Of a stretch of 64,000 nt of DNA, positions 13,610-63,900 are shown one piece after another. Numbering within the stretch: the stretch's first letter is position 1; every line of letters begins with the position of its first letter. The position numbers and the translations under genes are program-made. Below the pieces are notes generated by a model, which had not been told where the DNA came from, did no database searches, and worked only from the letters and a program-made list of their open reading frames with translations. The stretch is from Blasia pusilla (taxonomy: Eukaryota): positions 22,072,001-22,136,000 of the forward strand of contig CM114271.1 of NCBI GenBank assembly GCA_050084515.1, given 5' to 3'.

Positions 13610-15128
13610 CAAGGTTGAATGTGGACAAAGTCCGTGTCCACGGACATGTTCATGTCCGTGGACTTATGTTCGTCTTGTGGAAGCATGGTTGCACAAAAAT
13701 GGACAAGTCTGTCCTAATGACAAACATGGACGGAAAAATTTAAACATGGATTGTAAAATGTAAGGCCCACACTTTATAGTTCATGGTGGAAGGCAAGACA
13801 AGGGTGGGTAGGGAAATAAGGGAGAAGAGACTAGAGGTAGGAGGAGAAAGAAATAAGGAAGTGTGGATCATGAAGGCAAGTAGGGGGATGAGAAAGAAGT
13901 GGGAGATGGGACCCATATGGATTAGTCCTTCTATAGGATGGACGTAAATCCACAAATATGGACATGGACTTTGTCCTTATGCAACCTTCTATGGAAGAAA
14001 TTGTCCATATGGGCCCCACCTTCCCCTTCTTTCTCATTCTTCCCACTTGCCTTAGTGTTTTGCACTTTCCCATTTCTATCTCCCCCCTGGATCCCCCGCT
14101 TTCACTCCCTCTCCTATTATTACACCACTTGTCCTTGCCTTGCCTTCCACCATGAGATATAAGTGTGGTCCCCATCTCTTTCAAGTCATGTTCGTGGACG
14201 TGTTCTGACTTGTCCGTTGATATCCGTTCGGATATCAATAAAGTCTGTATTTGTCCCTAGGACGTGGATGTCTGTACGACAAGGTTGCACAAAAACGGAC
14301 AAGTCTAAACATGTCCACACACGTGCTGCTCGGGTAGCTGTGGCGCGCATCTAAGCCCGCCCTTGGAGCTTGCCGAGCCCGTAGCTCGCACTTGGGCTGG
14401 CCGAGCCCGCACCGGTTTTTTGGCCCACAACCACGCCCGCGCGAACTCACACATGGTGGAGTGGGCACCCATTGGGCGGGCTCAGGGCCCACGTTTGGGC
14501 GCCATGTGCGGGTCCAACGTGGGCCTAGCTGCAGGCCATAAAATTGGTGCGGGCTTGGCCAACCTTTGGGCCCGCTATGGCCTAGCCAGGCTATGGGGGT
14601 GGGCCGCAGGTACCTGAGCCCGCATGGACATTTGCATGTCCGCGGACACGGACTTTGTCCATGTTCAACCTTGTCGTACGGACTCAAGTACCTGTGTTGC
14701 GCACCCAAGCCCATCGAGCCCGTAACGTAGACTTGGGCTCGTCCACTCTACATCCATTTTGTAGCCCGGCATGAAGCGGACACGAGGCCCACAAGGCTGG
14801 ATGGCCCCCCATTGGGTAGACTTAGGCTTGCGTCTCAAGCCACACAAGGCCCGGAAGGTTGGCCGAAGCCCGCACAGGCTTGCCCTGTGCGATTAGCCCG
14901 CCATACGAGCATAAGCCCGCCCAATGGAGGCCCAACCCACCTTGTGGGCTTGTTGTGGGCCGAGGGCAGGCTACAAAATTGGTGCGGGCTGGACGAGCCT
15001 GGATCTACGTTATGGGCTCGGCAGGCGGGTTTGGGTGGGAGTAGGCCCTTTAGGGGACCCGTTGGTCATGTCCGTTTCCATGCATCCTTGGTCCTAAGAA
15101 CAGACTTGTCCATTTGTTTGCAACGATG
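13610..15128. mobile_element. Nested cluster of hAT-type MITEs
   Basis: Outer ends CAAGGTTGAA (13610) and TGCAACGATG (15128). Inner copy 13684-13989 has TSD TGTGGAAG/TATGGAAG. Inner copy 14280-14673 (CAAGGTTGCAC...TTCAACCTTG) has decayed TSD CTGTACGA/TCGTACGG. Confidence 0.85.
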
Positions 15129-26246: not shown

Positions 26247-26541
26247 CATGGTTGCACAAAAACGGACATGGATGGAAAAATCTGGACATAGATTGCAAAA
26301 GATGGTGTCCACACTTGTAGTTCATGGTGGAAGGCAAGGCAAGGGAGGGCGGGGAAATAAGGGGGAAGGTAGTGAAGGTGGGATTGTGAGAGGAGGAAGA
26401 AACAAGAAAGTTCAGATCACAAAGGCAAGCATGGGGCGCGGGGGGATTAAGAAAGAAGGGGGAGATGGGGCCCATATGAATAAGTCCTTCTATAAGACAA
26501 CGTAAGTCCACGGACATGAATTTTGTCCATATGCGACCGTG
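26247..26541. mobile_element. hAT-type MITE, same subfamily as 13684-13989
   Basis: TIR CATGGTTGCA...TGCGACCGTG; 8-bp TSD ATGACACA/AGGACACA (7/8). Confidence 0.85.
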
Positions 26542-30619: not shown

Positions 30620-31800
30620 TTCCCGGTGGGCTTGGCGGGCTCAGAGGTGGGCTTGGGTGCGGGCCGCGGATACCCGGGCTCGCACAGACATGTTCGCCTC
30701 TAGGATGGATATAAGTCCGTGGATACGGACTTTTTTTGTGTGCAACCTTATGTGTAGGGCCAATGCGGGCTTAGCAAGGTTGCACGGAAACAGACTTGTC
30801 CATCCATGGGATAGATAAGCCCAAGCTGCCCATCGGGTACCCCATTCAGATTTTTTCAATATCCCGATCGTTTGCGCGGGCATGGGGTGCATGAACAGGT
30901 GTGCGAGCTACAAGACGGCACGAGCCCACAGCAAGCCCGTACAACACGAACTTGAGTACCGTAGGCGCGGCCGCACGGGCCTATCGTGGGCCATGCAACA
31001 TTGTTGGGAGTCAGACGGACTTAGTGCGAGCCTCTATGAGTCTATGGGCTTACTATGGGCTACAAAACATGTGGCGTAAAGGGACAACCGATCAGTGGAT
31101 TGGGTGCAGGCTAGTCAAGCCCGGGTCTATGTTGTGGTCCAACCAGCCAAGGTGTGGGCCGTGGGAACCCAAGCCTGCATGGACATGTCCGTCCCTAGGA
31201 TAGACATAGGTCCTAGGACACAAACTAGGCAGGCCAATAGGGGCCACACGAGATCGATGTGGGTCTGTACGCACGAAGAGCCGGTTCCATGCATGCTACA
31301 AAATGGGTGGCAAGAATGGGCAACATGTTGCTAGACTAGTTGCGTGCAGGCTAAGCCCAAGTCTACGTTGCGGGCGAGGTGGGCTCGAATGCAGACCGTT
31401 GGAATCCGCGTCCACACAAACATGTTTTTCCTAAGGACAGACATAAGGCTACATACACATACTTTGTCCGTGTGCAATCTTGCCCGTGTGATGGTTGCAC
31501 AAAAATTGACAAGTCAATCCCTTGGACGAACATGGACGGACAAGAATGGACATGTCCACTGACATGGATTGCAAGAGGTGGAACCCACACTTTATAGTTC
31601 ATGATGAAAGGTTGGGCAAGGGCAAGTGGGGGAATAAGGGAGGGAGTGGAGGTGAAGGGATGAAGAAACCGGAGAGTATGGAATACGAAGGGAAGTAGGG
31701 GGAATGAGAAAGAAGGGGAAGCTGGGGCCCATATGGACAATTCTTTCCATAAGACAGACGTAAGGCCACGGATACAAACTTTGTCCATATGCAATCTTTT
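30620..31800. mobile_element. Second cluster of hAT-type MITEs
   Basis: Multiple family termini: GTGTGCAACCTT about 30750, CAAGGTTGCACGG about 30775, GTGTGCAATCTTG about 31480, GATGGTTGCAC about 31490, ATGCAATCTT about 31797. Confidence 0.75.
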
Positions 31801-40841: not shown

Positions 40842-43800
40842 TAGCACGTATGTTAGGATAGATCGACGAGATCTAGTAGAGCGCCTTCGGAGATATTGGA
40901 GGAAAACATCTGGAGGTCGAGGATGACCTACGTAGGTTATGTGGCCTCAATAGGTCATTCTCGACCTCTTGAGGCCATAGATAACCTGTAAGACCAGGTT
41001 TCCCCTTTGTTTCGGCTCATTTGGAGCCATATTGAGAAACTTACTATTTTGGGTAAGATACTATTTATGGCATAGCTGACTTTCCACTTTGAGAAGTGGC
41101 CCTTGACCCGCTACAGCAGGTCAAGAGCCAAGGAGGTGACCTGCGAGCATAGGGTACCAAGGAGAGGGCTTGGGAGAGGGAAGGGGGCATAACTCCAAGT
41201 GAGAGAGCTCTCAAGCTCATTCTCTCTTTGTTGAATCTCTTCGCATGAGGCGGCGGAGCTATGGTCCTCCTTGACTTTTGTATATAACCCAAGCCTCTCA
41301 TTAGGAGAGTGGGTTTGGTTTGACATAAGAGAGAGTGCACACCATAGAGAACTTGGTGTGAGATGTTGATAGAGATTTGTTCAATTTACAAAGAGAGAAT
41401 GCGAGAGTGAGAGAGCTTCAATGGAGGAGTTTGCTAGTCACTTACTTTTGGTGGAGGTTGGGAATCGTTCCCTATTCAGCAGCTCATGGGAGTGCTCACC
41501 GGAGCTAGAGCCGCTTGATTTTGCTATTTTCTTTGACAATTTTCGTATGGGAGAGTGCCACGCGGAAGCGTTGCCAAATTTTCATTACAAATTGAGTATG
41601 GGGACGGATTTCCCCTTACCACTGCTCTTGGTAGCACCATGTACCTCTTCAATTTCTGATTTTACACGTTTGAAGTTTTCATTGGGAGAAATCAGCGCGG
41701 AAGCGTTGGCAATTTTTTCGTAGGAGTGCAGATTGAAGGGCTGTATGACAAGCCCTGTCAGTTTTTATTGGAAGGTCGAATGAAGAAAACAATTTGAGAA
41801 GATCATACATCAAGAAGCTATGTACGCCATGGAAGAAGCGGTGCGCAATTTCATCCTCTCTGCGTGAAGTTACAACAACTTTCGTTGTGCTGCCATAGCC
41901 ACCGTTTGAAGGTATGAGTGAAATTTCCAATTTCCTTTGGTAAATATCCTTATTGGAGAGGTAGAAAAGTTAAACTGTTGGGGAGAGTGGATAGGACAAG
42001 GGCTATATGGAAGTAGGAGTGAGTGAAACAATTTTTTGGGATGTTGACCCTCAATTTTAGGGGGAATTGGTGGAGAAGCATTCCAATTGCTAATCTATCA
42101 AAAGAGGGGTAGTCAACTCACAAGCAAAAAATAGTCGAAATCCGTATTTATAGGGATGTTTTTAGTAAAGAATCAAAAAAATTGAGAGGATACGTTGTTG
42201 GGTATGCCGTACTCAATCCTACCAACGGCTTAGTGCCGACCCCCGCTACACCCGATTTCCGTCGCGTGCGCCATGCGTCCTATCTGCGTCTTCGCTCCGA
42301 GCCGTTCACCGGCTTCGCGTGAGGGCCAAGTCCCTCAAGCTACCATGTCTCCCTATTGTTGCCATTGGAATCGAGGTTTCTTGAAACTGGCAGGGAAGGA
42401 TCATTGTACCCAGTTCATCGCCGACCACAAGCTTTCGGCCGCGTGTGTTTCGATGTTGTCCATCGACCTCAGGTCCCTGCCTGCCGCTACAGCCGTGTCA
42501 AAACGTAGGCACTCGCTTTGGGCTCCGACTGGACTTTATGAGCCGACCCTACAATCTAACAGCGCTTCTGGCCTGACTGCGTGGCCGTCGCCGCGCTCTC
42601 TTTCCTGGCTTGCTACTTCGGGGTTACAGTTGTTGTCGTCCCCACGTCTTTTGTGTTTTGCCATCCCTACTACTACTTCACCACGTCCCGGTGTTTCTCC
42701 GTGACCGCTGACCCTTGGTCCTCCGTGGCCTTGTTGCTGTGGTCGCCCGCATTACTGTCAATTACTGGGGATGCGCCTGCCGCCGACTACACGGCCTAAC
42801 TGCCTGTAATTTTGTGCTTTCGTCTTTTGGTCCTCACAGCCGACCTTGCCATGTCGCCCGGCTTCTTCTTGCTGAGCCGTTCCTAGTCCACCATTAGCTA
42901 CTACGCCTGTTGCATCACCGTGGTCCGCCTAAGCTGCCGACTTGCCGTTGCTGTTGCTAGTCCGATTGCTTGGAGGTCGCCACCTTGCAACCGCGACTCA
43001 CGGACGTGGCACTATCCGATTGCCGTCAGTGGGCCCGTCCACCCGTCATCTTTTCCATCAACCTATCGCTGTTCATCACCGTTCGTGCCGTCGGCTTACT
43101 ACCATTTCTTTTTCAATGGTTGTAGGAATCCGGATGCAACCACCATTGATTGGGTGATTTAATGCCGCCATGACGCAGTTTGTTCTAGCCGTCCTTGTCA
43201 TAGTAGTTTCATCATCTAGCAAATGAGGACCGGCCATTCAACGACCATGAGTAACATTTTTGGATTGATGGGGGTCGCTATTTTCCATGTTTAGTGATTG
43301 GTAGCTGCTCGAGGACGATCGAGTACCGTGCCGTGACGCCCGTAGTTGCAACACACCGCCGATTACTGCGTCGTGCCGCTTGTGGCCGTACCTCACCGTC
43401 TCGATCGCGGAGCTGTACCATGACTTAGAGCAGAGCATATTTTGGTGTTGAGTAGGATATGTCGCATTTCATTCTTGAGTGTCGTGCCATTTGTAGCCGC
43501 AGGACCCGCATCGCACATCGAGGAGATTTGAGAATTTCAGTACCACAGAAGTACGACTTGATGATTGGAGGAGTTTGTCTTTACGACCAAGTTGGGATCA
43601 AGATTTGCAATTGCTGAGGAGCGACATCGATATTTGTTGTCAAGTTACCCAGTCTTGTCTTTTGCCCTGCATGTGTTAGGGATTTCCGAGTATTGGGTAG
43701 TTATTTGGGATATTGGGTTTTGTGCGGATGTTGAGAATATCGTTGATATATGGGTTTAGGGGATATAGACCTGTGTGGGATGTGCAGAGTTGGGGTTATG

Positions 43801-46800: not shown

Positions 46801-48280
46801 GATCCGCTATAGAATGTGCCATGGTTGCTGCAGGTGTTGTGTTGCTGGATAACCGAGGAGAGATCTTAGAGTTGGTGAGTCAAGGAGGTAGATTTTTTTC
46901 TCCACAACGTGTCTTGTTAGATTCAGGAGCGCAACCTTAGCCGCATTAGGCATCGCCATCATATAGCCTTATGACTTGATTGAGGGGCATGTCCATGCAA
47001 AGAACATCTCCTCGCGTGACACTTGTAGGGAGAGGAGTGTTATGGTAGCCGCATCATTCCGTGGAGGAGAGGTATCATTGTGGGGCTCAAGTGAGTAGCT
47101 CCAACGCTTGGTAGATGAGCACGTGCAGATGGCGTGGAGTCACGCGTTTGCACCAGAGCGTGACAAAGGTGCAAACACGTGAATCCTGGCTACCTCGGAG
47201 AGGAACCCGAGGTAGCCGGGGAGTGCTACTATGACCCCTTTGGACACCACCGTACCCTGATCCTGTGGCGCATCCTAGAGGAGGGTATTTGCGTGTTGGA
47301 TCTCTTAAGAAGTATCAGCATTGGCTTAGCTGCTGTTTTGCAGGGACAAGTGCGTGTGCAAGAGGACTTGTATGTTGAGATTGATGATGTTGCGAGGCGC
47401 ATTTCACTTCACCATGTGGTGCAATTACGCCTCTGATTTCCCAAATTTTTGTGTGCGTCCGTCGTCTAGGGATTCCAGAGTTTCCTACCAAGGGACATTT
47501 CATTGTTGGGGGCGCAGGACTTGGAGCGGGCAGGGACCATAGATTTGGTCATTGCTAGTTGGTGGAGCCCAATGCCGATGAGTGAGAGCGAGCGATGGGA
47601 TTCTCCACAAGAGTGATGGCAGTACCATCAATATCAAAGGCATCACGACATCATATCTTGGGTCAGGCAAAGGACTTGAACTACTTCACATGGATTTTCA
47701 GCTTAAGAGTAGCTCAACAACATTGTTTGAGGAACTGTTGCGTTGGTGAGCCCCATGCCTATTGAGATATTCGAGGCATTGGTTGGAGGTGAGACTCGAG
47801 GAGATCGACACACTAGGAGTGATTGGTAGAGACACCCTTGAACTTGGGATGTTTTGAAGGTACGTCGGGAGATTATAGCTATAGCATCAAGCGTGGTTCC
47901 GGATACTGCACGTGGAGAAGATGAGATGAGAAGTTGCAATTGGTTGTAGGAGAGCATTCAAGTTCTACTGTCTGAGATAGAGTTGCACCATAGCAATCAT
48001 CAACACCCGCGCTGGAGAGTTCTACCGTAGTCACGATGGAGACTTGGGAGCCAGATATGGGCCTTAAGTTGACAAAAGGAGAGCAGCGGCGGATACATCA
48101 GTTCCTTAGGAGTTTTAGGATTTTCTTTGCATTTAGCATGCATGATCTGGGTATGCTAAAGGGTATAGGGATCCGCATTGAGTTCTTAAGCGACACGCCG
48201 ATCTTTCGACGACCCTACAGGTATAGTGACATGGAGAGGGCTTTGATTGAGAGTAGGAGCCAGGACTTGGTTGGAGCAGT
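40842..48280 (+). mobile_element. Gypsy-DNMT element D (5' part: LTR, leader, gag, protease, DNMT remnant, start of RT), interrupted at 48281
   Basis: LTR about 40842-41390 ending TTTACA. Gag about 44180-46200. Protease VLLDSGAQ about 46910. DNMT motifs at 47280-47620. RT start PIFRRPYRYSDMER about 48200. Colinear with elements at 50022 and 60986. Confidence 0.88.
44402..45395. mobile_element. Solo LTR (994 bp) inserted in the gag of element D
   Basis: TGTTGCG...CATGACA ends; perfect 5-bp TSD GATAT (44397-44401, 45396-45400). Removing it restores gag as seen uninterrupted at about 63500. Confidence 0.9.
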
Positions 48281-50021
48281 TGTTGTGCACATACAGATCG
48301 CTACACAACATACATTGCTTTCACCAAACATACACACAAACACGCATGATCCCAAGCTAACTCATGGCATCCAAACAATAAGACAAGAAGTACTAAAATA
48401 TCTCAAATCAATCGAGTCGATCTCTAATCAACATCTCACACCAAGCTCTCCATGGTATGCACTCTCTCTCTCATGTCAAACCAAACCCTTTCTCCTAATG
48501 AGAGGTTTGGGTTACATACACAAGGCAAGGAGGACCATAGCTAAAAAGTTACCACGAATTTCAAATTTAGCTCCTTCCTCACGCAGTGGCTATGGCAACT
48601 CCACAAAAATGATCATAATTTCTTGCTCCCATGTTCAAATTGTGCACTATTTCTTCCACAACGTGCATAGCTTCCCGATCTACAATAGCGTTAAATCAAC
48701 TTCTTCATACAACCTTCCAAAAAAAAAAACTGACAGGGATTGTCGTGCAACCCTTCAATCTGCACTCCCACAAAAAATTCAGCAAGGCTTCCGCGCTGAT
48801 TTCTCCCAACAAAAATTGCAAACCTATAAACACAACAACCAACAAGCTACAAGGTACTCTTGAGAGCACCAACATGGGGAAAATAGCCCCCATACTCAAT
48901 TTGTAACAAAATTTTGGCAACGCTTCCGCGTGTCACCCTCTTGTACGAAAAATCAGCAAAGGAATCAACAAAATTGAGCGGCTCTTGCTCGGGTGAGCAG
49001 TGCCATGAACCGCTGAACAGGGAATATGATCCCCAACCTGCAACAAGAGCGAGTGACCAGCAAGCTCCCCCATTGAAAATCTCTTTGTAAATCAAGTAGA
49101 TCTCTCATCAACATCTCACACCAAGCTCTCCATGGTATGCACTCTCTCTCATGTCAAACCAAACCCACTTTCCTAATGAGAGGCTTAGGTTACACACAAA
49201 AGGCAAGGAGGACCATAGCTTTGCCGCCTCATGCCAAGAGGTTCAACAAAGTGAGAATGAGGTCTAAAGCTCTCTCTTGGAGGTATACTCCCTTCCCTCT
49301 CTCAAGTTCTCTCCTCAGTAACCTATGCTTGCAGGTCACCTCCTTGGCTCTTGACCTGTTATAGCGGGTCAAGGGCCACTTCCCAAACAAGAAAGTCAAC
49401 TATACTCCAAATAGAAACTTACCCGAAATAGTGAGTTTCTCTATATGGCTCCAAATGAGCAGAAACAAAGGAAAAACCTTCTCTATGAGGTTACCCATGG
49501 CCTCAGGAGGTCATCCTCAACCTCCTGAGGGTTGTCTTGTAGTATCTTCGAAGGCGCTCTACTAGATCTTGCCGATCTATCCTAAAAGTTGTGACAAGTG
49601 TCCTACGCATACACATCGCTACACAACATACATCGCTGTCACCAAACATACACTCAAACACACACGATCCCATGCTAACTCATGGCATCCAAACAACGCG
49701 ACAAGAAGTCCCCCTAGATGGTGGTTAGGTCCCTCTAATTCCAGATAGCCATCTATCCCTACCTACAATGACATACATCTCTCAGACGCTAAGATAAAAA
49801 AAGTCGGGTGCCCAAGTGGCCCTATCCTTAGTCGCCTTCTTGTCACAGACAGAAGTCAAAATCTAGAACTACCTGCTCTATGTACATCTGGGACACATCC
49901 ATCATCCCTCAGGAACCCTAGTGAGAGATGGCGTCAAACATGCCATATGCAATCCTCTCGAACATCCATCACAGACTAGCATAGTGACTGCACCACGGGC
50001 CAAACCACACAACATACATCT
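48281..50021 (-). mobile_element. Gypsy-DNMT family element C, 3' end (PHD finger, PPT, B-A-...-B' repeats)
   Basis: PHD CMLCGLARGAVTMLVCDGCSRGLHMACLTPSLTRVPEG*WMCPRC at 50018-49884; PPT at 49717-49704; B 49703-49599; A 49596-49086; B' 48385-48281. Confidence 0.88.
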
Positions 50022-50389
50022 TGTCATGACCATACGGATTATGTCGTAGAGTATAGTGTGCTAGTAGAGGCCATACCTTATGTAGGGCCGTAGTGTCTAG
50101 GTAGAGATGCAGGTTCATACATAGGGTTGGGGGTTACTCCGTTGAGGGTGAATTTTCCAGTAGGGCCTGCTCTTAGGTTGGAGGATATAGTGTGGAGTGC
50201 ACTCAAAGAACAGTTAGTTCTTTGAGTTGAGCTTGTTGCGTTGGGAGTTAGCCTTGGTAGTGAGTAGAGCTCTTGGCTATGGTGGTTCCCGCAAGCTTCG
50301 ACCTCGATTCTCCCATCGTGGAGTGGGTTTGGCTCGATTGTATGTGATTCTATACGTATTTTATAACAATAGGTCTTTCATGGGTTTCA
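50022..50389 (+). repeat. A repeat (5' LTR-like), 368 bp
   Basis: TG...CA; direct repeat of 59243-59610 with about 17 mismatches counted by eye (about 95% identity). Confidence 0.95.
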
Positions 50390-53300
50390 CTCAAAGAAGT
50401 GGAATAGATCGATAGTACCTTCGATCGTGGATCAGTAGGATCTGGTTAGGGTTGATTGTGTACTCAGTAGTGGATGTTCATGGCTTTTGGCCTATGTTGG
50501 AGGTGTGAATCTAGTGCATGGTTGTTTGGGAAAGAATCGCCTTGCTAAGAGCTTTCCAACGCGCTTTAGATCCGCGGATTTTGTCAAGGGAGTTGGAAGT
50601 TATTAAGGATTGAAGATTCTGGTTCGTGTTCGACGGTTTTATGATTTAGAGAGCTTGGAGTGCGGAAGCTCTGTTGAAGTTCATCCAGATCGGGTGAGAG
50701 GTTCCTATTGCTACGTGTATTGTGATCTCATGTGAAGTTATCTGCTTGAGTGTGTGGAGCGTTGTGGATTTCTGTGTGCATGAATCTGGGCGGAAGCGAT
50801 GTTGGATTTGCAATTCTAGAGGTGTATGGACATCAAGTTTGTCTCATATTTAGCTTGGAGTATAGAGCTCGGTTGTAGCTGATTTTTTTATGGAGAGATA
50901 ACTATGGCGGCCAATTAAATTCTGGTTGAAACAGATTCAATTTTGGTTGAGGATTTATGGAGAAATTGTTGATCGAATTTTGCGGACTAGCTCAAGGTGG
51001 ACAACAGATCGGAGGGTCTGGTTGGTTTGTGACTCGTCCGTTGTTAGAGACGCCTATCTCGTTGGGAGCGCCCTGGTTGGGCATCTCTCCATAGCAAAGC
51101 ATGGCGAATGGGGCATGTCTCGAGCATCTCTTGTCGTTTGAGGCTTCGAGGCACCTCGTGGTAGCTTGGGACGAGTGGGCGTGAGAGGTGGAGTAAGGAG
51201 TAAGGAGCAAGGAGCAAGCAATCAAGCTTGCTTGCTTGGGCGTGAGGCAATTTTTGCAGGATTTGTGAGTTGAGTGTTGCATAACTGGTCACCCATCTTT
51301 GGGCTATTCTGCTTGGAAGACGCTTAACGGCTGAGTTCTTAACTATGTCAGTGTACACACTGGTGTAGCTCATTTGGTGTTGTTCAGAGATGTGTTAGGC
51401 GCTTTATGCATCTCACGTTTTTGGTTGATGTACCTCTAGCGCATAGTACGGTGTAGCCTCTCCATGCAGGTGATATTTTCACGTGCTGCGAGTGCGACTA
51501 GCACGTCATCGACCAGCGGCAGAGTAGCTATTGCGTTAGAATTTTGTGGTGGAATCTGTGGATTCAGAGGGTGCCACATTTGGTGGACTGTGTTACCTTG
51601 ATTTCCATTTGCGATCGGAGGGTTGTCGTTGGACTTCTTGTGTTCGGATCCCCTCCATCGTTGCTTCTTGCTTGCGCGCCCATTGTTAGGATTGACCTTG
51701 ATTTCCAAAGTAGTTTTACTCGTGTGTGCTACCGGTAGTGAGGCTGGAGTGATGACCAGTAGACCGTGGGAGGCTTCTTGTGGTGATGACATGTTAGGTT
51801 GCCCATAGCTAGTAGAGCTAGAATAGTACAGCGACATCAACATCACTTGGTTACTTAGTGGTGGTGATTTGGTGGTGGTGTGGCATCGACGTTGGTCATC
51901 ACGGAGCTATTTGGTGGTCTGGTTGGGGACCGTGGTACGGGCAGTGGTGGTTTTACATGGAGTGGATTGAGGTATCGGCTACCTTTTCCACTTCCGACGG
52001 TTGATGAAGAGGAGGACGAGGGTGTTCCAAACACCGAGTCTTTTACCTTGTTATCGAGTGTTGCAGCTCCATTGATTTGGGACATGGACGGGATATATGG
52101 GACCATGAAGGGCCCACCACGATACTCGAGTGCAGTGGGCACCATTGAGTTGGAGGACTTCATTCAATAGTTTGATACGTGGTGTGATATGCTAATGTTG
52201 CGGAACACCACGTTGTTTACACCCTTCTTGGCTTGGAAGGGGTTGTTCCAGCACTTGGAGGGACCACCCATGGACAATTACCATGAGTTAAGGAGGGACC
52301 ATGTTGGTGAGATTGAGGCGTGGAGACAATATTGGTCTCCAGGCTATGTGTCTATCACCCATGGTGGTATTGGTAGTAGTGCTCCTACTGTGTCAGCCAA
52401 TTTGACCTTGAGTAGTACAAGTACGAGCCGGAGTGGAGGTACCACTGGGGGTACTAGTGCTCCACCATCGTTCAGCCGGGTTGCAGAGTTCTTCAAGAGG
52501 TTGACGAAGAACTATCAGGGAGTGAAGATAGAGAAGTTGAGGAATCTTCAAGAATTTGAGCGAAAGACAGGTGAGAGACTTCGTGAGGCATACACTCATA
52601 TGACGCTTGATTTCAGTTACCTAGGGTGTGACTAAGGCTCAGGTAGTCTAGTTTTGGTATGGGATCTTGGACAAAGAGTTGCGCCGTAGGGTATGTGATG
52701 CTACTCTTATGAGTGATGATTCACCCACATTGGCCAATGTGTTTGCTCTATCTGAGAAGATTGAGCTTAACATGGTGGAGGAGAGAGTGGTGACATCCGC
52801 ATTCACTAGGGATACAACTACTACTTCTCGTGTTCAGCAGTCCACCTCACAGTCTCGTAGTGGTGATGGTGGTAGTAGTAGTGGGAGTCGTGGGGGGTAC
52901 ACACGACCTCAGTTAGGTCCTAGAGGGACACTTGCGCAGAGACCATTGCCTTCATTTGCTGCCCCGCAGCAAGGACAATCATGTTGGACATGTGGAGGTG
53001 ATCATGTCAGGAGGTTTTGTCTCCAAGAGGATGGGAGACGGACTTTGGAGGATGGGCCTCAGTCAGCCCCAACTCAGTGTGACCAAGTCATCCTCGAGAG
53101 CGTTGCTTTGATCTTCATCCAGAGTTGAGATCAGGCCGCGGACGTGGTGGAGTAGCTCCGAGAGGCCGAGGTGGTAGAGGTGGTAGGGATGGTAGAGGTG
53201 GACGAGCGGTTGGAGAGCCTATGGTGGCTATCCCTACCACTACGACAGTAGTCACTATGGTGCCGAGATTGAGCTTGATTGGAGCAGAGGTTGGCTACTA

Positions 53301-54714
53301 TGGTCGGTATCCAAAGATAGAGTAGGTTCCGGAGCGGGGCTTCCACCTCTTATGGAGGGAATGATCTCTCTTATATGGCAAGTGCAAAGACAAAGTTGAG
53401 GCATCGATTGCGATTACGAGAGGAGCCACTCGAGCGTTAGAGCCACGTGGTGCTACTGTGGAGTTGGACCCACAGAGGGGTGAGGCTGGGAGGCAGGCTA
53501 GGCTTCCCCAATCATTCTTGTTGTCTAGGGTGCTTAGGACTCCATCCATGGCTCCTACGCAGTCTATTGAGCCTACAGTGGGGACTAAGGTATCTACATC
53601 GCGTTTAGTAGACATAGATGCAGCATCCAGTGTAGTATTGCAGATGGCAACTTCAGTGTTGGGATCCCCATTATTTTCAGCCACTGAGTTGATGGCCTTA
53701 GGAGTTGACTTAGCTCGTGTATTTCAGCTAGCAGCCACGTTGTGTGAACGTGGGAGTATTACTTCTACACGTGCTGAGGTGGATGAGGGTGTTGCGGTGG
53801 AGAAACCCTCTATGTTAGGTGTAGCATTGAGTACCAGTGCTACTTGGCAGGCAACAGCGGCGAAGATGGATGCATTACCAGCCCGGCCAGCCATTGATTG
53901 TGAGAGGCTTACACTTGGTGTATGTATGTTGGACAATTGGAGTGGGTTATTCCGATTGGTGAGTCCTACAAGACAGGTGTATAGACCAGATAGAGTCTTG
54001 TTAGACTCTGGTGCCCAACCTTTGATGTTGGGAAAGGCAGCATGTATTGGTTTGGGTATTCGGAGGTCAAAGCTTGAGCCTTGCCCAATCCAGATTCAGA
54101 CATCACTTGGAGGAGCCAATGATAGGTCTGATTTCATGACATGGGAGAAGTTTTCTGTACAATTGAGACCATATCATGCGAGTGATAGCTCCTGGTTGGG
54201 AGTACCTGCAGTGGTCACATCAGCCGAGTCGCATGATGTACTAGTTGGAGGAGCAGTATTGTACTCGATGGGTTTTCAGATGGACTACTGAACTGAGACA
54301 ACGTCTTATAGACCTGGTTGGCAGTTTGGGGATGGACGTATGAGCCAGGTTCCTCTGAGATTTATTTATGGGGCTCGACCAGGAGGGTCTTCCCCAATGG
54401 TGTTAGCATCTGTGGCTGGTTTTTGTGGAGTAGTCACTTGGCCAGGAGACTTTTTGGAGGGCAACCTTTCTGCTATGGATTCTCCTATGCATGAGGAGGT
54501 AGAGGAGGTCCCTAGTTTTGCAGCAGTGGTATCCTCATCGTTGGATGTGCCACTTTGGAGTTCAGGCGGTGCCCTACGACAGGAGGTTGATTGCCTAGTG
54601 GAGGAGGCTTGGTGTGAGGCTGTTATACCTCACGAGGAAGAGGAGGCTCCGGCAGACTCCTACTTCTGGTCCTGTTGGGTTATACTACACCCATTGTATG
54701 GCAGTATCAGCTAG

Positions 54715-55570
54715 AGGGCATTTGTGTGTTAGATCTCTTTGATGGGATTAGCATTGGTTTGGCTGCAGTGTTGCAGGCCGCTATTCCTTTGCGGAGATAC
54801 GTGTATGTGGAGCGAGATGAGACGGCCCAGAGAGTCTCATCCCGACATATTGGTCAGTTGATGCGGAGATATCTTGAGTTGTTGCCGCCATCAGCTATTC
54901 GTGGGTATCAGCGTGCTTTGCCGTCACACATTGCATTGTCGTAACACCCGTAACATCTCCCAAAACAATCGAGACCTAGGTCTCGATTGTTTTGGGAGAT
55001 GTTACGGGTGTTACGACATCTTCAGGTTCATCAGGCACGTGCTCCAGCTTATATTCGAGAGAATGTTCCATTGTTGGGTGACACTCGGACCCGGATGATG
55101 GCGAGTGTTCATGAGGTTGGATTGGACCAGCCGTGTTGTTGGATGCAGTGCGAGTTGGCTCACGTGCACATCGTCCACGCTTGTGGTGGACAAACTTGTT
55201 GCCTAGGGAGGTTCTACGTTGAGCATATGATGCAGTGCAATGGGATCCTTGGCTTACAGTGGATAGTATCTTGGATACTGGGCGACTTTCTTAGGTGGTG
55301 AGGGTTATTGATCAGTCACCCATCATAGTGGTGAACTGTGTGGGCCAGCCTAGGATGGCACTACCCACATTTGTGAGTTTTCCCTCGTCACATGCCTAGA
55401 GGGAAGATGGTCCCGGGCTTGTATGGGATTCTCATGTGCGACAGTTGGTGGAGCCTAACGCTGATGAGAGAGAGCGTGCAATGGGATTTGCTACTCGTGT
55501 GACAACGATTGCTTCCATTTCTGAGGCTTCACGACGTCATGTGTTGGGTCAGGCCATGGACCTGATTTTT
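54715..55570 (+). pseudogene. Retrotransposon-encoded DNMT3-like C5 cytosine methyltransferase domain (disrupted)
   Basis: ICVLDLFDGISIG (motif I), YVYVERD (II), RSRLFWEMLRVL..ENVP (V-VI), PAVLLDAVRVGSRAHRPRLWWTNLLP (VII-VIII), ERERAMGF...RRHVLGQAM (IX-X). Motif IV is missing; frameshifts and stops present. Confidence 0.9.
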
Positions 55571-55869
55571 TTACCTCGATTTTGAGTCTTGGTATGGCCG
55601 AGCAGCGTCGACTTCGGACTATGTCTATGGGTCTTCCACCCCTTGTGATGAGCTCGATGGCTACCGGGCCGGTAGAGACATCGGCTGGGGTCGAGGAGAA
55701 CAGTATTTTGCATCCTTGGAGTAAATGGGATGTTATGGCTGGGCATGTGGAGTTGGTTGCTCATGCTGGTGGAGGAGTTACTTGCTCAGATGATGGTGTA
55801 GCTAAGTGTGTACCATCTTGTAAGGGAGTTGCATAGCAGCCAATGGTGTCTTCCTCTCCCTCTAGTGTG

Positions 55870-58800
55870 CTAGTGGAGGAGACTTGGGAGCCATTACTTG
55901 GGCCCAAGCTTACGGAAGGTGAGAAACGACGCTTGACATAGTTCCTACGTGCTTATAGCAGTTGTTTTGCCTTTAGCATGAAGGAGTTGGGTGCTTTGGT
56001 TGGACCCGATATACGGATTGATTTGGCTAGTGATACACCAATCTTTTGTCGTCCCTACCGATATAGTGATATGGAGAGGGACCTGATTCAGAGTAGGACG
56101 TTGGACCTTTTAGAGGCAGGATTAGTGGAGTTGTTGCATGGAGAGTATGCATCAGCCACTGTCATGCCTGCTAAAAAGGATGTGCATGGCAACTACACAG
56201 ATAGGCGGATGTGTGGAGATTACCGTCCTATCAATCCGTAGACCAAGGTCGATAGGTATGCCATGCCTACACTTGAGGAGATCATTGATGTGGTGGGACC
56301 GGCAAAGATTTTCAGTACTTTGGATCTTCGAGCAGGATACCATCAGTTGCCGATTCGAGAGAGTGACAAGGCCAAGACAACATTTTGGGGTGTCAACTCT
56401 CATGGCAAGGATTGTTTGTACCAGTGGAAATTCTTACCCTTTGGGTTGAAGAATGCACCTGCCGAGTTTGAGAGAGTGATGGACAGGATCCTAGCAGGGT
56501 TGGATTTGGTTCGGTGTTACATTGATGATATCTTGGTGTTTAGTAACACAGTGGAGGAGCATCAGATACATTTGCAAATTGTGTTTGAGCGGTTGAAAGC
56601 TCATGGTCTATGTTTGCCATTCAGGAAAGTATAAGTTCTTCCTTAAGGATATTGAGTACTCGGGTCATGTGATCTATCCAGATGGTTTGGGAGTTCAGCA
56701 AGCAAAGGTGGAGGCTATTGCACTTATTCCTTGTCCGGTAGATGTGAGTAGAGTTGGGGCATTCATAGGATTGACGAACTACTATCGGAGGTATGTGAAG
56801 GGATTTAGTGCTATGGCAAAGCCTTTGAACCAATTGTTGAAATCAGATCAGGAGTGGTACTGGGAAGATGATCAGGAGAGAGCTTTTGTGGAGCTCAAGG
56901 CCCACTTGGTGGCGGCGCCTATCTTGAGGAGACCTATCAGAGGGCGCCCATTTCAATTACACACTGGTTGGAGTAGGTTGGGGCTTGGAGCGGTGTCGAC
57001 ACAACATGATGATGAGCACATGGAGTTTGTCGTGGCCTATGCAAGTCGTTCGAATAATGCAGCGGAGTCCCGCTATAGTTCATATGAGGGAGAGTGCTTG
57101 GCAATAGTGTGGGTTGTGGCACACTTTAGGTGTTACTTGTTTGGCTCATAGTTTACCCTTGTTATTGATCACCAGCCGCTCAAGTGGTTGATGGAGTCTG
57201 ACAAGCTTACAGGGAAGCTTGCACGGTGGGCTCTTATCTTACAGGAGTATAATTTCCAAGTGGTACATAGACGTGGAGTTGCCAACCTTGATGCTGATAG
57301 GTTGAGTAGGAACCCATATACTAGCCAAGAGGATGCAACTCGGGCTAGATGCCATGGCGAGGGTGATGAGGAGATTGTGCCAGGTTGGCATGCATCTGCC
57401 TTTTTATGTTGGTTACGGGTGGACTCTAGTATGGAGGACCACATGACATCTTACTCTAGTGAGAGGGTATATGGCCAGCCTTCAGATGCTAAGGTTGGAT
57501 ATGATATTCATGATGATGCGTTGGTGTTGGAGTTCCTACGGACTTGTAGGGTGCCAGACATAGTGGGTGCCAAGGAGCGAGACCGTGTTCTTCAACGTGC
57601 TAAGAGGTATCGATTGGAGGGAACACATATTCTCCGTGTGTGGGAGGATGGTAGAGTACGAGTAGTGCCACATTTGGCTCAAAGAGAGCACATTGTGCGA
57701 CATGCCCATGAGGAGTTGGGACATTTTGGGGTAAAGCGTATATATAGCTTACTCCTTGGTCAATATTGGTGGCGTGGCATGCATACTGAGGTGCAGCAAT
57801 TGGTGTCACATTGTATGGTTTGTGACCGGGTGAGGGCATCACTCAATGCCCCTTCACCACAGTTACACCCCTTGCCTATTATGGGGTTGGGTTACCGTTG
57901 GAGTGTGGACTTTGCGGGACCGTTACCGTAGTCGTTGATTGTACGACATCATCGATATGTGTTGGTGATGGGGGAGCACTTCTTCAAGTGGATTGAGTTG
58001 GTGGCATTACCTGACAAGGCAAGTGAGGGAACGGCGTATGCCTTAGAGTTCTTTCTTGATAGAGTGCTTAGTCATTTTGGTGCACTAGCTGAAGTGCTGA
58101 CCGACCAAGGTACAGAGTTTCAAGGTGAGTTTCAGGTCTTGTGTGACAAGGCGTTGATTGATCATCGGACCACGTCTCGAGATCATCCAGAGGCGGATGG
58201 TTTGGCTGAGCGTGTGTTTCAAACGATAAAGAGGGCATTGCGCATGTATGGCCTACATAAGGGGCATCTTGGAGATAAAGAATATTCAGTTGCCATGGTT
58301 AGGCATAGGATATAGGTTCAGTCGCCAAGCATCCTTGGCTTCCTTCTCACCTTATTTTTTGTTATACGGCCGAAATCCAGATTTTCTTGCGGCAATTCGT
58401 GAGGAGTCTACAAAGGTGGTGAACCTTGACGATCCACAGATATGGATGAGAGTGTATTCTCAGCGGGCAGACCTCTTTCGGAGAGTTATGCCAACAACCT
58501 TTGAGAATCTTGCCATTGCTCAACACAAGGATACGTTTCTGTATGCAACCATTCGGGGTGGAGGTTATCGACCATCGATTTTTAGGTTCCATGTGGGGGA
58601 CTATGTCTATTTGCAGCAGATTGCACCAACAATGTTGGATGTGACTGCAAGCCGCACTATTTTACGAGTGCGCGAGGTGTTAGCTTCTTGAGTTCTCATG
58701 TTGAAGGGTCGTGATGGAGTTGTTTAGAAGGACCGTGTGCGTAATTGTGCGCCATGTCATCTTCCAAATATGGATGGTAATGTTGACCCAAGCTTAGCCA

Positions 58801-58970
58801 TGATACGTGCTAGCTTGAGGTGCATGTTGTGTGGGTCTGTTGGTAACGCAGCCCGTATGTTGGTGTGTGATCGGTGTTCTAGGGGTTGACACATGATATG
58901 TTTGACTCCACGTATGGATGTTGTTCCTACTGGAAGGTGGATTTGTCCTCGATGTACTAAGGAGAGGTAG
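55870..58970 (+). pseudogene. Gypsy RT-RNaseH-integrase-PHD coding region, with stops and frameshifts
   Basis: ORF pieces 55978-56241, 56263-56634, 56603-57151, 57188-57931, 57935-58315, 58248-58691 in Gypsy domain order; PHD at 58821-58955. Confidence 0.95.
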
Positions 58971-59136
58971 ATGACATGATCTTTGCATGATATGGATTAC
59001 AGATGTGCGACTTACGATGGGGCAACCCAGCACCCGACCTTCTGATTCGTGCACCCACGAAGGTGTATAGCATGTAGTAGATGTATAGGGCTACCTGGGA
59101 GTTAGAGGGACCTAACCGCCAATTAGGGGGGCGAGT

Positions 59137-59715
59137 TGTGATACACTTGTGTTTGTGGATGCTCTCGTCTATGTTATGTATGAATGCGAGTATGGTATGT
59201 CAGCGATGTCTTTTGTATGACGATGTGGATTCGCACGACAGTTGTCATGACCATACGGATTATGTCGTAGAGTATAGTGTGCTAGTAGAGGCCATACCTT
59301 ATGTAGGGCCGTAGTGTCTAGGTAGAGACGCGCGTTCATACATAGGGTTGGGGGTTACTCCGTTGAGGGTGACTTTTCCAATAGGGCCCGCTCTTAGGTT
59401 GGAGGATATAGTATGGAGTAAACTCAAAGAACAATTAGTTCTTTGAGTTGAGCTTGTTGCGTTGGGAGTTAGCCTTGGTAGTGAGTAGAGCTCTTGGCTA
59501 TGGTGGTTCCCGCAAGCGTCGACCTGGATTCTCCCATCGTGGAGTGGGTTTGGCTCGATTGTATGTGATTCTATACGTATTTTATGATAGTAGATCTTTC
59601 ACGGGTTTCAGTTGTCGTACACTTGTGTATGTGGATGCTCTCGTCTATGTTATGTATGTATGTGAGTATGGTATGTCAGCGATGTAGTTGTATGACGATG
59701 TGGATTCGCACGACA
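59137..59715 (+). repeat. 3' terminal B-A-B' repeat block after the PPT
   Basis: PPT AGGGGGG at 59125-59131; B1 59137-59240; GT; A2 59243-59610; GT; B2 59613-59715; each unit TG...CA. Confidence 0.95.
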
Positions 59716-60985
59716 ATCGTAAGCGTGCACGAGTTACTGCTAAGCTTGGATTAACTATACCGTTAATGTTAGGAAGGTGACATGGCGCACACTTACGCAC
59801 ATGGTCCTTCCAAACCATACCATTGCGTCCACACTATATCCAATAAGGGAACACTAGATGGAAAAATCTCATGCACTCTTAAGATGGTGCGTCCTTCAAT
59901 CACATCCAACATTATGGGTGCTGTCTGTTGCAAGTAGACATAGTCTCCCTCTGAGTGAAACCTCTGGATAGGTTGATAGCCACCTCCCCAAAAAGTCGCA
60001 TACATTAACATATCCCGATGTTGCGCAATCACCAAATTCTCAAACACCATGGGCATCACTCTCCAAAACAACTCAGCCTTCTGAGAACATGCTCGCATCC
60101 ATACATCAGGATCATCAAGGTTTAACACCTCACCAATATTTCGACGAATGACCACAGGTAAATCTGGCTCTCAGCCATAAAGTAGCAAGTACGGTGAGAA
60201 AGACGCTAAGGATGCTTGCTTGCTGAATCTGTATCCCATCGCCAAACACGGCAACTGGAGGTCCCAATCTCCTAGGTGATCTCTCTGCAAGCCATACTTA
60301 CGCAATCCTCTCTTCATTGTTTGCACAACCCTCTTTGCTAGTCCATCCGCCTCAAGATGATCTTGCAAAGTGGTGTGGTGGTCCATCAATGCCTAATCAC
60401 AAAAGGTCTGAAACTCCCCGCGAAACTCCGTACCTTGGTTTGTCAACACCTCAGTTGGTGCGCCGTAATGACTCAACACTTGATCTAGGAAGGCAAACGC
60501 TACTCCCTTACTCGCTTTTTCATCCAATGCAAGCAACTCTATCCACTTCCAGAAGTGCTCGACCATCACCAACACATAACGACTATGGAGCTCCGTCAAA
60601 GGTAAAGGTTCTGCAAAATCCAAACTCCATCTATAACCTAAATCCATGATCAAAATTGGATGCAACTGTGGAGTCGGAGCATTGAATGATGCCCGGACCC
60701 AATCACACACCATGCACCTAGCAACAAACTGTTGAACGTCAGTCTGCATGCCTCGCTACCAATATTGTATCTAAAGCAAGTTGTACGTCCGCTTCACTCC
60801 AAAATGACAAAAATCCTCGTGACACACCAAACTTGCTGTCTGTGAAGGATTAGGCACTACATCTACTCTATCATCCTCCAAAACCTCCAACATATGCATC
60901 CCCTCCCACCAGAACCGTTTGGCTCGTTGTAGGATCAGATCCCGCTCTCTAGCACCCACTATCCTCTCAACGCTGCCTATATGCA
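59716..60985 (-). mobile_element. Element C integrase segment; continues into 50021 downward, interrupted at 60986 by element E
   Basis: Minus-strand ORFs CHFGVKRTY, CMVCD, WSLDFAEP, TNQGTEF, ADGLAKR, GDYVYLQQ are homologous to 57700-58800. Confidence 0.92.
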
Positions 60986-63900
60986 TGTCACGTCTTTTAG
61001 GATAGATCGGTGGGATCTAGTAAAATGCCTTTGTGAGTAGTGGAAGACATGCTCAGAAGGCCGAGGATGACTTGCTGAGCCCTGGGAAACCTGAGAGAGC
61101 AAGTTTCCCCTTCGTTGCGGCTGATTTGGAGCCATATTGAGGAACTTACTATTTTAGGTAAGTACCATTTTGAGTATATGATCGACTTTATATTTTTGGT
61201 AAGTGGCCCTTGACCTCCTACATCAGGTCAAGAGCCAAGGAGGTGACTTGGGAGCATAGGTTACCATGGAGAGAGCTTGGGAGAGGGGAGGGGTATATCT
61301 CAAGGAGAGAGAGCTTGACAACTCATTCTTTCTTTTTTTAACCTCTTGGCATGAGGCGGCGGAGCTATGGTCTTGCTTGCCTTTTGTGTGTAACCCAAGC
61401 CTCCCATTAGGAGAGTGGCTTTGGTTTGACATTGAGATACACATGTGAGAACTATAGTGTTGTGAGAAAGATTTGATCGTATTTTACAAGGAGAGAATGA
61501 GAAAGTGAGAGACCTTCATGGGGGAGCTCGCTGGTCACTCACTGGTTTTGAAGGTTGGGGATTGTATTCCCCATTCACTGGTTCATGGGAGTGCTTACTG
61601 GAGCAAGAGCCGTTTACTTGTGATGTTTCCTTTGCCGATTTTTCGTGTGAAAGAGTGGCACGCGGAAGCGTTGCCCAATTTTTGATAGGTATTGAGTATG
61701 GGGGAAGGTTGCCCCATGCTGGTACTCTCGGGAGAACCATATACCTTGCTGATTTGTGTTCTTACATGTCTTAGATTTTCGTTGGGAGAAATCAACGCGG
61801 AAGCACTGCCGAATTATGTGTAGGAGAAAGAGACATTTGGCTTTACGACAGTCCTTGTCAGTTTTTACTGGAATGTTCAATTCCAAATATTTTTTGATGC
61901 TCTTGTAGATCAAAAAGCTATGCATGTTGTGCAACAAACGGTACATAATTTGGAGTTGTAAGCAAAATTTTATGATCAATCTTGCAAAACTTCCATTGCT
62001 AGGCAATTTTTAGGGTTAAATTGTTCAAACCCTAAACCAGCCGCCACACCGGAGGCGGCCGTCGTTGTCATAGTCACCATCAATGGTCAATGGTCAATCA
62101 TCACTGTTGACGGTCAATTGTTACCATCAACGGTCTGTCGTCACCATCAACGATCAACCGTGACCGTCAACAGTCCACCGTCCAGCGTTGTTGTCCCCTA
62201 GCGCTGCTCAAAGCTGCATTCAGACGTTGTCCACCCTTTGGTTGCCATTGCCGCCATTACAAAGTGGAGGGTCTTCCACGACCACCGTTGATTCTATGAC
62301 TTGCGCCGCCTCTACCTACTTTGGTTTGGCCGCCACCGTCATCGCAATTTGGTCATCAACTAGTGATGGCCGGTGACCTCGGATTATGGTGTTTGAGTTT
62401 TCATTTCATGTTGCTATGTTGGGATTGGTAGCCGCTCGACGATAATCGAGTACCGTGCGGTGACGCCCGTAGCCGCAACGCGCCGCCAATTTCCGCGCCA
62501 TGCCGCATGTGGCCGCACCGCACCGTCTCGATCGCGGAGCTGCTCCTTCACTAAGGTGCAGAGCATGTGAATTGCTGATTCAGGAGGGTATGCCACCAAG
62601 TGCCGTGCCCTTTGTAGCCGTTCCGTGCTGCACCGCACCACTGGACCTGCACCGCACATCAAGGAGGTTTGAGCAGCGTCAGTACGAGAGGAGTAAACTT
62701 GCTGATTGGAGGAGTTGTCTTCACAACCGAGTTGGGGTGGAGATTTGCAGTTGATGAGGAGCGATATCGACATTATTGTCAAGTTACCCATTATGGTCTC
62801 TTAACTTGCAAGTGTGAGGGATTTTTGGATATTGGGAAGTTATTTGGGATATTGGGTTTCGTGTTGATCCTAGTAGCATCGATGACGTATGGTGTTTAGG
62901 GGACATAGACGTGCGTGGGATGTCCAGAGTTGAGGATGGTTTATCGATGAGACGATAGATCGGTTGATTTTCCGCACCACGCTACTTATTGCCGCACAAC
63001 ATACGTCTCAATGAGAGAGTGTAGATTGAGTGTCACATGTTTAGTTTGATTACTCACGAGATTGAGAGTGATCGTGTGAGAGGGGCACGAGGGCCATCAC
63101 GGCCTCCTTTCGGGATTTTGAGAGCCAAGGTAGTGGACCTGAGAGTAGCTATGGAGGGTTTACCCGGAGTGGTGCGAGGTTTCGAGGGTCTCCACGTGAG
63201 AGACCACTTGGATCTCCTTCTGTGTTGTCTTCTGACAAGAGTGAGCGTGTAGAGGAGTGTGTTAGTGATCCACCGTACACTTTGAGTGGTCCTACCAGTT
63301 GGGCATACGAGATGGAGGACCACGCAGATTTTTGGATGTTGTAGGCACTATAGAGCTACACGACTTGATTGTGGAGTTTAGGAGTTGGTGTGACTTACAA
63401 CGGGCTAGGAACTCTAGCGAGTTCAACCCCGTTTAGAGCATGGAACGGTATGTTCTAGAATTTAGAGGGGGCGCCCATGGACGATTACCATGAGTTCTCC
63501 CACAGATATGCCCATGAGGTTGAGGCATGGCAACTCTACTATGACCCACAATATGTGTCATAGACGGATCGGTTTCCAGATGAGGAGGAGGAGTCAGGAG
63601 AGGCTACTTCCTCTTCCACTAGTGATGTTTTAGGAGGGGTCAGTCGCACAAGAGCAGTTGGACCATCTAGTTGGGTTCGTCCCAAGTTCAACCGCGTGGT
63701 TCAGTTCCTTGTTGAGTTGAGGGCGAGCTACTAGAGGGTACGGACGGAGAAGTTACAGAGCATCCACGACTTCTAGAGGCGTGCGGGTAAGAGTTTGCGT
63801 GAGGTTTACACTCGCTTGCGCCGGTTGATCAACGTCACTCAAGGGTGACGGAGGCTTAGGCTATCCAATCATGGTACGGGATGTTGGACTGTGTGGACAC

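Follow-up and report, generated by a model that had tools for sequence, protein, structure and literature searches.

Split A...B-A-B terminal repeats in a DDE-integrase Gypsy element of Blasia pusilla and its green-lineage relatives

In the textbook classification of retrotransposons, split direct repeats go with tyrosine-recombinase elements and identical long terminal repeats (LTRs) with integrase elements (PMC8969392, PMC8557442). PAT, Ngaro and TOC1 of the DIRS order have repeats in the order A1-internal-B1-A2-B2 and a Gypsy-related reverse transcriptase (RT) and RNase H, together with a tyrosine recombinase of their own and no target-site duplication (TSD) (PMC8969392). A Gypsy element with such repeats is already in print: the legend to Fig. 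4c of de Mendoza et al. 2018 (PMC5890265) describes KnitGypsy-Dnmt3 of Klebsormidium nitens as having Gypsy domains with DIRS-like repeats. Here we analyse K1, a Gypsy element at 50022–59715 of a 64,000-nucleotide stretch (the window) of Blasia pusilla contig CM114271.1 (assembly GCA_050084515.1, positions 22,072,001–22,136,000 of the forward strand), whose terminal repeat units, A and B, are arranged as A...B-A-B. All positions below are those of the window.

K1 resembles KnitGypsy-Dnmt3 in carrying a DNMT3-like domain within a Gypsy pol and in combining Gypsy domains with A...B-A-B-type repeats, but it belongs to a different family in a different host lineage, the K. nitens proteins being only 40–46% identical to K1 pol. 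An earlier, sequence-only reading of this DNA knew of no Gypsy element with this layout, but could not verify novelty; the printed legend shows that one had been described. The passages of PMC5890265 that deal with KnitGypsy-Dnmt3 leave its termini, any target duplication, its junctions and the mechanism undescribed, and beyond that paper, whose supplements (e.g. Supplementary Figs 13–14) may add to this, we found no literature on termini, duplications or mechanism for Gypsy elements of this kind. K1 adds to this little-described kind of element a decayed member from a different host lineage. A smaller asymmetry is found in Gypsy-7a_cRei, an active PHD-finger element of Chlamydomonas in which the last 8 bp of the right LTR are absent from the left one (PMC9940879, Fig. 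6A legend); by analogy it may be a miniature of the K1-type end asymmetry, although just 8 bp are involved and that legend describes no B-A-B.

At its 5′ end K1 has A alone. A1 (50022–50389, plus strand, TGTCATG...GGTTTCA) is the sole 5′ repeat unit, and matches A2 (59243–59610, plus strand, TGTCATG...GGTTTCA) over 368 bp at 95.4% identity (E 3e-170). B1 (59137–59240, plus strand, 104 bp, TGTGATAC...CGACA) matches B2 (59613–59715, plus strand, 103 bp) at 92.5% identity across a 107-nt alignment (E 2e-40), both pairs being recovered by repeat search and by BLAST. The 3′ end runs from the polypurine tract (PPT), whose region (59103–59134, plus strand, ending ...TTAGGGGGGCGA) is conserved in all related loci, through GT-B1-GT-A2-GT-B2, with the B1/A2 and A2/B2 spacers at 59241–59242 and 59611–59612. 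Each repeat unit starts with TG and ends with CA. By BLAST and inspection of the sequence there is no B-like sequence beside A1, and the stretch after A1 has no similarity to B. The coordinates and lengths that the sequence-only reading gave for this layout are correct base for base by repeat search, BLAST and reading of the sequence.

Recurrence, termini and enzyme content

Seen in one copy, the layout might be a one-off accident: a nested B-A-B terminal-repeat retrotransposon in miniature (TRIM) or solo LTR at the 3′ end, a 5′ loss of B, or an assembly error. Nothing beyond the single-copy view speaks for this. A metagenome scan returned 80 related loci, whose ends were mapped by BLAST and from which same-locus duplicates were removed. 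B-A-B is present at 24 distinct 3′ ends (one with a truncated B2, one with a later insertion and one without the upstream part), and these loci belong to two LTR families with pol 72–80% and 42–48% identical to that of K1. A PPT-B-A-B 3′ end is also found inside the window, in H, the related Gypsy element that K1 interrupts. The 5′ ends are A-only in 21/21 cases, with no B on either side of A1; these comprise 18 distinct metagenome loci (L013 and L014 possibly being one locus) together with K1 and two further elements of the window, E_a and E_b. No duplication surrounds B1...B2 alone, the TSD brackets A1...B2, and DNA and RNA runs cover the region. The nested TRIM or solo LTR, the 5′ B deletion and the assembly artefact were each rejected on recurrence, which leaves an accident next to no probability.

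A...B-A-B is the regular architecture of a broad green-lineage Gypsy clade, not a single event as the sequence-only reading had it. That reading had considered two observations damaging to it, intact copies with identical LTRs at both ends and an independent B-A-B TRIM with its own TSD; no B was found at any of the 21 5′ ends, so the first comes out in its favour, and the duplication spans A1...B2. Programs that look for LTRs by expecting identical terminal repeats will set the boundaries of these abundant elements wrongly.

A second common form, which had not been foreseen, accompanies the recurring B-A-B: 14 distinct 3′ ends have a single B (L002, L003, L005, L026, L027/29, L033, L035/36, L037, L043, L054/55, L056/57, L061, L072/76 and L074). 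Among the A...B elements with both ends available, 3/4 have a perfect 4-bp duplication. These copies lack a 3′ R region, so they should be incapable of replication. Coding decay is alike in the two classes, with medians of 12.3 (A...B) and 11.2 (B-A-B) stops and frameshifts per 1000 aa; the comparison includes duplicates (18 and 25 loci, respectively) and is a weak test, in which the equal decay does not favour slow B1×B2 recombination as the source of A...B. Separately, the 3′ flanks of L039 and L053 are 97.7% identical, and L039 has ~890 bp extra between A2 and B2; the two probably represent a single insertion, either as alleles or as duplicates.

The outer termini are uniform, with TGTCATG...ACA in 16/16 complete elements. 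A 4-bp TSD is perfect in 11/16 and agrees at 3/4 bases in another three, K1 included, the remaining two agreeing at 0/4 and 1/4. When the left and right flanks of different elements were cross-paired as a null, 0/240 pairs were perfect. In K1, the duplication is ATCT (50018–50021) against ATCG (59716–59719), with one mismatch. The sequence-only reading had given 3–4 bp; flank comparison over the 16 complete elements sets the length at 4 bp, and the alternative for the K1 site, 3 bp duplicated with one T retained, was rejected. It had also fixed the limits of K1 by an interrupted host reading frame. These limits are exact, and the frame can now be identified as the minus-strand pol of H. The flanks (59721–60962 and 49710–50021) are homologous, in reverse-complement orientation, to K1's own 57560–59133 at ~67–71% identity, and the insertion site is crossed unbroken by RNA reads from uninterrupted H relatives (read end at 50018). 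The limits, and the length of the empty site, follow from this homology to pol together with the RNA reads. The 4-bp duplication, which is within the 4–6 bp of Ty3/Gypsy elements, and the termini are the hallmark of a DDE integrase whose cuts are staggered by 4 bp, not of a tyrosine recombinase.

The coding content points the same way. K1 encodes, in the pol order of Ty3/Gypsy and on the plus strand, a reverse transcriptase (56203–56628, Pfam RVT_1, E 1e-24), RNase H (56861–57250, RT_RNaseH, E 2e-32) and an integrase with an H2C2 zinc domain and DDE core (57677–58210, Integrase_H2C2, E 6e-15; rve in relatives), and the integrase C-terminus has a PHD finger (58821–58955, PHD, E 8e-11). The catalytic triad D438, D503 and E538 (numbered in a 572-aa query) occupies invariant alignment columns. 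The assignment of K1 to Gypsy elements with a DDE integrase, made earlier from the letters alone, is borne out by these domains. The homologues form a green-lineage clade with rve, Integrase_H2C2, RVT_1, RNase H and PHD, and often DNA_methylase too; the best named match to K1 pol among the matches listed is from Marchantia polymorpha (66%).

A DIRS/Ngaro-like cycle, in which recombination inserts a circular or single-stranded complementary DNA (cDNA) and the integrase plays no part, would account for the layout, A1...B1-A2-B2 being the textbook mark of split-direct-repeat tyrosine-recombinase elements (PMC8969392, PMC8557442). The repeats are the only one of three such marks that K1 shares, since its clade differs in enzyme and in target site. 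The tyrosine recombinase domain PF00589 is present in 0/120 of the homologues listed, and Pfam found no recombinase in the scanned K1 frames or in the two long open reading frames (ORFs) of the intact relative L010, which do carry rve. The 4-bp TSD in 11/16 elements is likewise at odds with DIRS elements, which have none (PMC8969392), as are the canonical TG...CA termini and the conserved DDE triad. We regard such a cycle as very improbable. The K1 clade also departs from ordinary Ty3/Gypsy elements, in that the LTRs at its two ends are not identical (A only at 5′, B-A-B at 3′) and the TG...CA ends come from different units. It breaks the textbook link of split repeats to tyrosine recombinases and of identical LTRs to integrases.

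Reverse-transcription landmarks and the internal junctions

K1 has a PPT before its 3′ LTR and a primer-binding site after its 5′ LTR, as Ty3/Gypsy elements do, and a G-rich PPT abuts B1 in every copy. The primer-binding site (50389–50398, plus strand, ACTCAAAGAA) is of the self-priming type. It lies at the boundary between A1 and the leader (TTTCA-CTCAAAG) and has a 10-nt exact complement in A, namely the 3′ arm (50218–50227, TTCTTTGAGT) of a plus-strand hairpin at 50201–50228. Across the related elements, the site is complementary to mid-A (positions ~164–208), with exact complements of 10–16 nt in 13/17 elements, 8 nt in two more and none of at least 8 nt in the other two. Compensating changes are seen, the leader variants TCTAGA, TTTAGA and TCTAAAAA being paired with their complements in A. 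In the H family, no self-complement of at least 8 nt was found for the motif TTTTCAAT.

In Tf1/sushi-type Gypsy elements, the primer-binding site is complementary to the RNA of the element itself and not to a tRNA. The K1 clade is similar in that its primer-binding site matches its own R region, presumably reflecting self-priming of the Tf1 type, but the complementary stretch is not at the very 5′ end, the one candidate RNA start seen being ~35 nt upstream of it. This primer-binding site, complementary to A, gives an independent fix on the U5 end. Since the PPT precedes B and the primer-binding site follows A, the LTR of reverse transcription is, on these landmarks, B+A: U3 consists of B, two spacer nucleotides and the 5′ portion of A, and the rest of A supplies R and U5, so that B1 holds the U3 start and A1 the 3′ part of U3, R and U5. 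A standard cycle should then give (B-A)...(B-A), which is the product that the sequence-only reading had proposed.

RNA data agree with such a transcript. In RNA run X21, 24 molecules start at 59404 (A position 162, in A2), and sense coverage extends from A via the leader to PPT-B1-A2, as expected of a standard R-U5...U3-R transcript. At a likeness of at least 88%, sense reads cover the entire K1 body (49948–59561) at a depth of up to 136 per bin, with H relatives on the opposite strand. Members of the K1 and H families are transcribed in the species named on the label of the window. In run X1, joints from B1 (~59164) to B2 (~59647) were considered as a PPT-B-flank form; this was rejected, and they are read as contigs from other copies that switch between similar B targets.

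The two junctions within B-A-B differ in character. In K1, the A2-B2 joint (59606–59619, plus strand, TTTCA-GT-TGTCGTA) runs from the U5 end through the post-PPT GT into the U3 start, TTTCA|GT-TGTCG compared with GCGA-GT-TGTGA on the PPT side (PPT-B1, GCGA-GT-TGTGATA). The corresponding sequences are ...TTTTAGTA|CTTCT-TGTC (the U5 side ending ...AGTA) versus GGGGGA-CTTCT-TGTC in H, and ...TTCAAT|ATACATG versus G-run|ATACATG in the M family, which is the second LTR family. By this comparison, A2-B2 is a U5 end abutted to a U3 start, including a few post-PPT bases. The ends of reverse transcription in the M and H families are not TG...CA. B1-A2 is a palindrome, CA(C/T)GACA-NN-TGTCATG, which in K1 is CACGACA-GT-TGTCATG (59234–59249); it is the proposed integrase site (att) inside the LTR, and B2 provides the right integrase end, ...CGACA. 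Its spacer is 2 nt in all the junctions examined (17 M-family, 7 K1-like, H and L010), the letters being GT, GC, AC, AT or AA, with CT in H and L040. The junctions of K1, H and the M family thus uphold the earlier assignment of A2-B2 as a U5-end/U3-start joint and of the genomic ends to the internal CA-NN-TG palindrome.

Length changes fall exactly at A2-B2 in 9/25 distinct copies: L001, L031 and L053 have +1, L067 +3, L060 and L073 −2 and L080 ~−7, while a large deletion is present in both L019 and L051; the picture is ambiguous for L018 and L062. In the 15-copy M-family alignments no gap was found at the palindrome or at the PPT-B1 boundary, the length of the G-run aside. As judged from these alignments, the contrast is explained by a joint that would be remade imprecisely in each cycle, not by a templated joint.

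A possible route through joined cDNA ends

We give a probability of roughly 0.55 to the following reading: the integrase ends lie inside the LTR made by reverse transcription, the cDNA ends are joined in each cycle, and the internal palindrome is opened. Laid out in this way, K1 reads as a circular permutation of (BA)...(BA). Ordinary reverse transcription would produce (B-A)...(B-A), and the U5 end would be joined to the U3 start, afresh and imprecisely each cycle, giving an intermediate like a 2-LTR circle. In the LTR adjoining the primer-binding site, integrase would cleave each strand of the palindrome after its CA and leave recessed CA-3′OH ends with 2-nt 5′ overhangs, which is the form of a 3′-processed retroviral end. 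The resulting A-...-B-A|B would be inserted by integrase with a 4-bp stagger. We infer the joining step, the cleavage by integrase and the order of events from the observed architecture, recurrence, termini, 4-bp duplication, junction sequences with their heterogeneity, and enzyme content.

Cleavage of this kind has precedents, as retroviral integrases cut palindromic LTR-LTR junctions in prototype foamy virus (PFV; PMC1180852) and, in vitro, in human immunodeficiency virus 1 (HIV-1; PMC1905944). The PFV and HIV-1 junctions resemble that of K1 in being a palindrome of two abutted integrase ends that is cut into processed ends. In the retroviruses the palindrome is the U5-U3 joint itself, and cutting restores the normal linear DNA, whereas in the K1 clade it lies 104–200 bp inside U3 and the U5-U3 joint is kept in the integrated copy. 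The product of the K1 clade is permuted because the palindrome is internal and the joint is retained.

Several points weigh against this reading. A symmetric 2-LTR circle has two identical palindromes, and cutting the other one would give A-B-A...B, which was seen in 0/21 cases. The origin from a 2-LTR circle suggested in the sequence-only reading is therefore sound in its permutation logic but lacks a directional step, since random opening predicts A-B-A...B equally often. Such polarity might arise if the primer-side LTR became double-stranded long before the PPT-side LTR, or if plus-strand synthesis continued past the U5 end into the U3 start and halted at the palindrome. The 14 distinct single-B loci, most of the two-ended ones with perfect duplications, are a further difficulty; A...B could originate from cutting of both palindromes of linear cDNA, from cutting of a 1-LTR circle, or from B1×B2 recombination. 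The RNA 3′ end cannot be placed (B1 and B2 reads are alike, 30 bins), so a transcript that includes A2-B2 is possible, and both −2 variants at the joint are in an ATAT context and possibly reflect later slippage. Finally, no circular or end-joined extrachromosomal molecule was observed.

The strict polarity and the junction changes would also suit a route in which reverse transcriptase alone permutes the DNA and no closed circle forms. Here the plus strand, on reaching the U5 end, would switch to the U3 start of the left LTR and copy B up to the palindrome; with only the left LTR double-stranded early, integrase would act there. End-to-end template switching with non-templated addition is known for retroviral-type reverse transcriptases, and the +1 and +3 insertions and small losses at the joint are what it would leave, just as the 0/21 count is what early double-strandedness of one LTR would give. 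This route requires a defined stop at the palindrome, and the large junction deletions in L019 and L051 look more like resected DNA ends. We consider it unlikely, but keep it as a rival.

If joined cDNA ends are the precursor, the DIRS-type layout would stem from the replication intermediate instead of from tyrosine recombinases, and integrating from circles would be a natural strategy, not a dead end. Each integrated B-A-B copy preserves both the cDNA-end joint and the site at which the DNA was opened, so that the origin of A1...B1-A2-B2 and the role of 2-LTR DNA as an integration precursor become testable. More tentatively, and at something short of an even chance, the whole green-lineage Ty3/Gypsy clade may integrate obligatorily from U5-U3-joined cDNA, with its DDE integrase acting in a restriction-like manner on a palindrome inside the LTR.

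Coding remnants, the host element and neighbouring copies

Numerous stops and frameshifts mark K1 as a dead copy. Upstream of the pol domains described above is a gag remnant (52171–53125, plus strand) with a CCHC zinc knuckle, broken by stops; its translation was read by eye and has no Pfam match. A remnant of a DNMT3-like cytosine methyltransferase (54678–55112, plus strand) sits in pol between protease and RT. A Pfam scan of this stretch gave no match; it was recognized only by comparison with L010, whose ORF1 has a Pfam DNA_methylase stretch that it matches at 35% identity (E 3e-25). Lacking the catalytic motif IV region, the K1 methyltransferase is inactive. Where that region would be, there is a perfect 41+41-nt inverted repeat (54937–55018). 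L010 is the only related locus with long ORFs; its contig has no terminal repeats and is uninformative on its own ends, and appears to break in a GC-rich repeat within or after A.

Across the K1 and H region (48200–61300), differences from runs X1, X5, X16 and X21 are mostly of two kinds, window A with read G and window T with read C, counted in X1 as 215 and 190, respectively. This base bias is consistent with C-to-T decay of these copies, as is the variable palindrome spacer (GC, GT, AC or AT).

The window from 40842 to 64000 is a nest of four related Gypsy elements, in which E_a (plus strand) is broken by H (minus strand) at ~48281, and H is broken by both K1 (plus) and E_b (plus, from 60986 to beyond the window edge). 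The pol of H, recognized by homology to K1 pol, occupies 59720–60962 on the minus strand and resumes at 50021–49743. Its 3′ end (48281–49742, minus strand) consists of the PPT (49742–49709), which is conserved as in K1, CTTCT, B_H1 (49703–49599), CT, A_H (49596–48391), CTTCT and B_H2 (48385–48281), and the repeat match is 48290–48391 with 49608–49709 at 90%. A_H is ~1.2 kb long and shares ~1040 bp with the 5′ regions of E_a and E_b; an internal 133-bp piece is duplicated (48410–48542 and 49090–49220, 91%), with the second copy abutting B_H2. A_H may be a long LTR, or else an LTR together with leader sequence, left by a tandem or recombinant element that has undergone a deletion. The 5′ ends of E_a (40842–41932, plus strand) and E_b (60986–61984, plus strand) both lack B, the former having a degenerate start, TAGCACG, and the latter beginning TGTCACG. 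Elsewhere in the window, a separate repeat family of ~300 bp is present in direct and inverted copies at 13685–14217, 26262–26538 and 31491–31798, with 71–74% identity.

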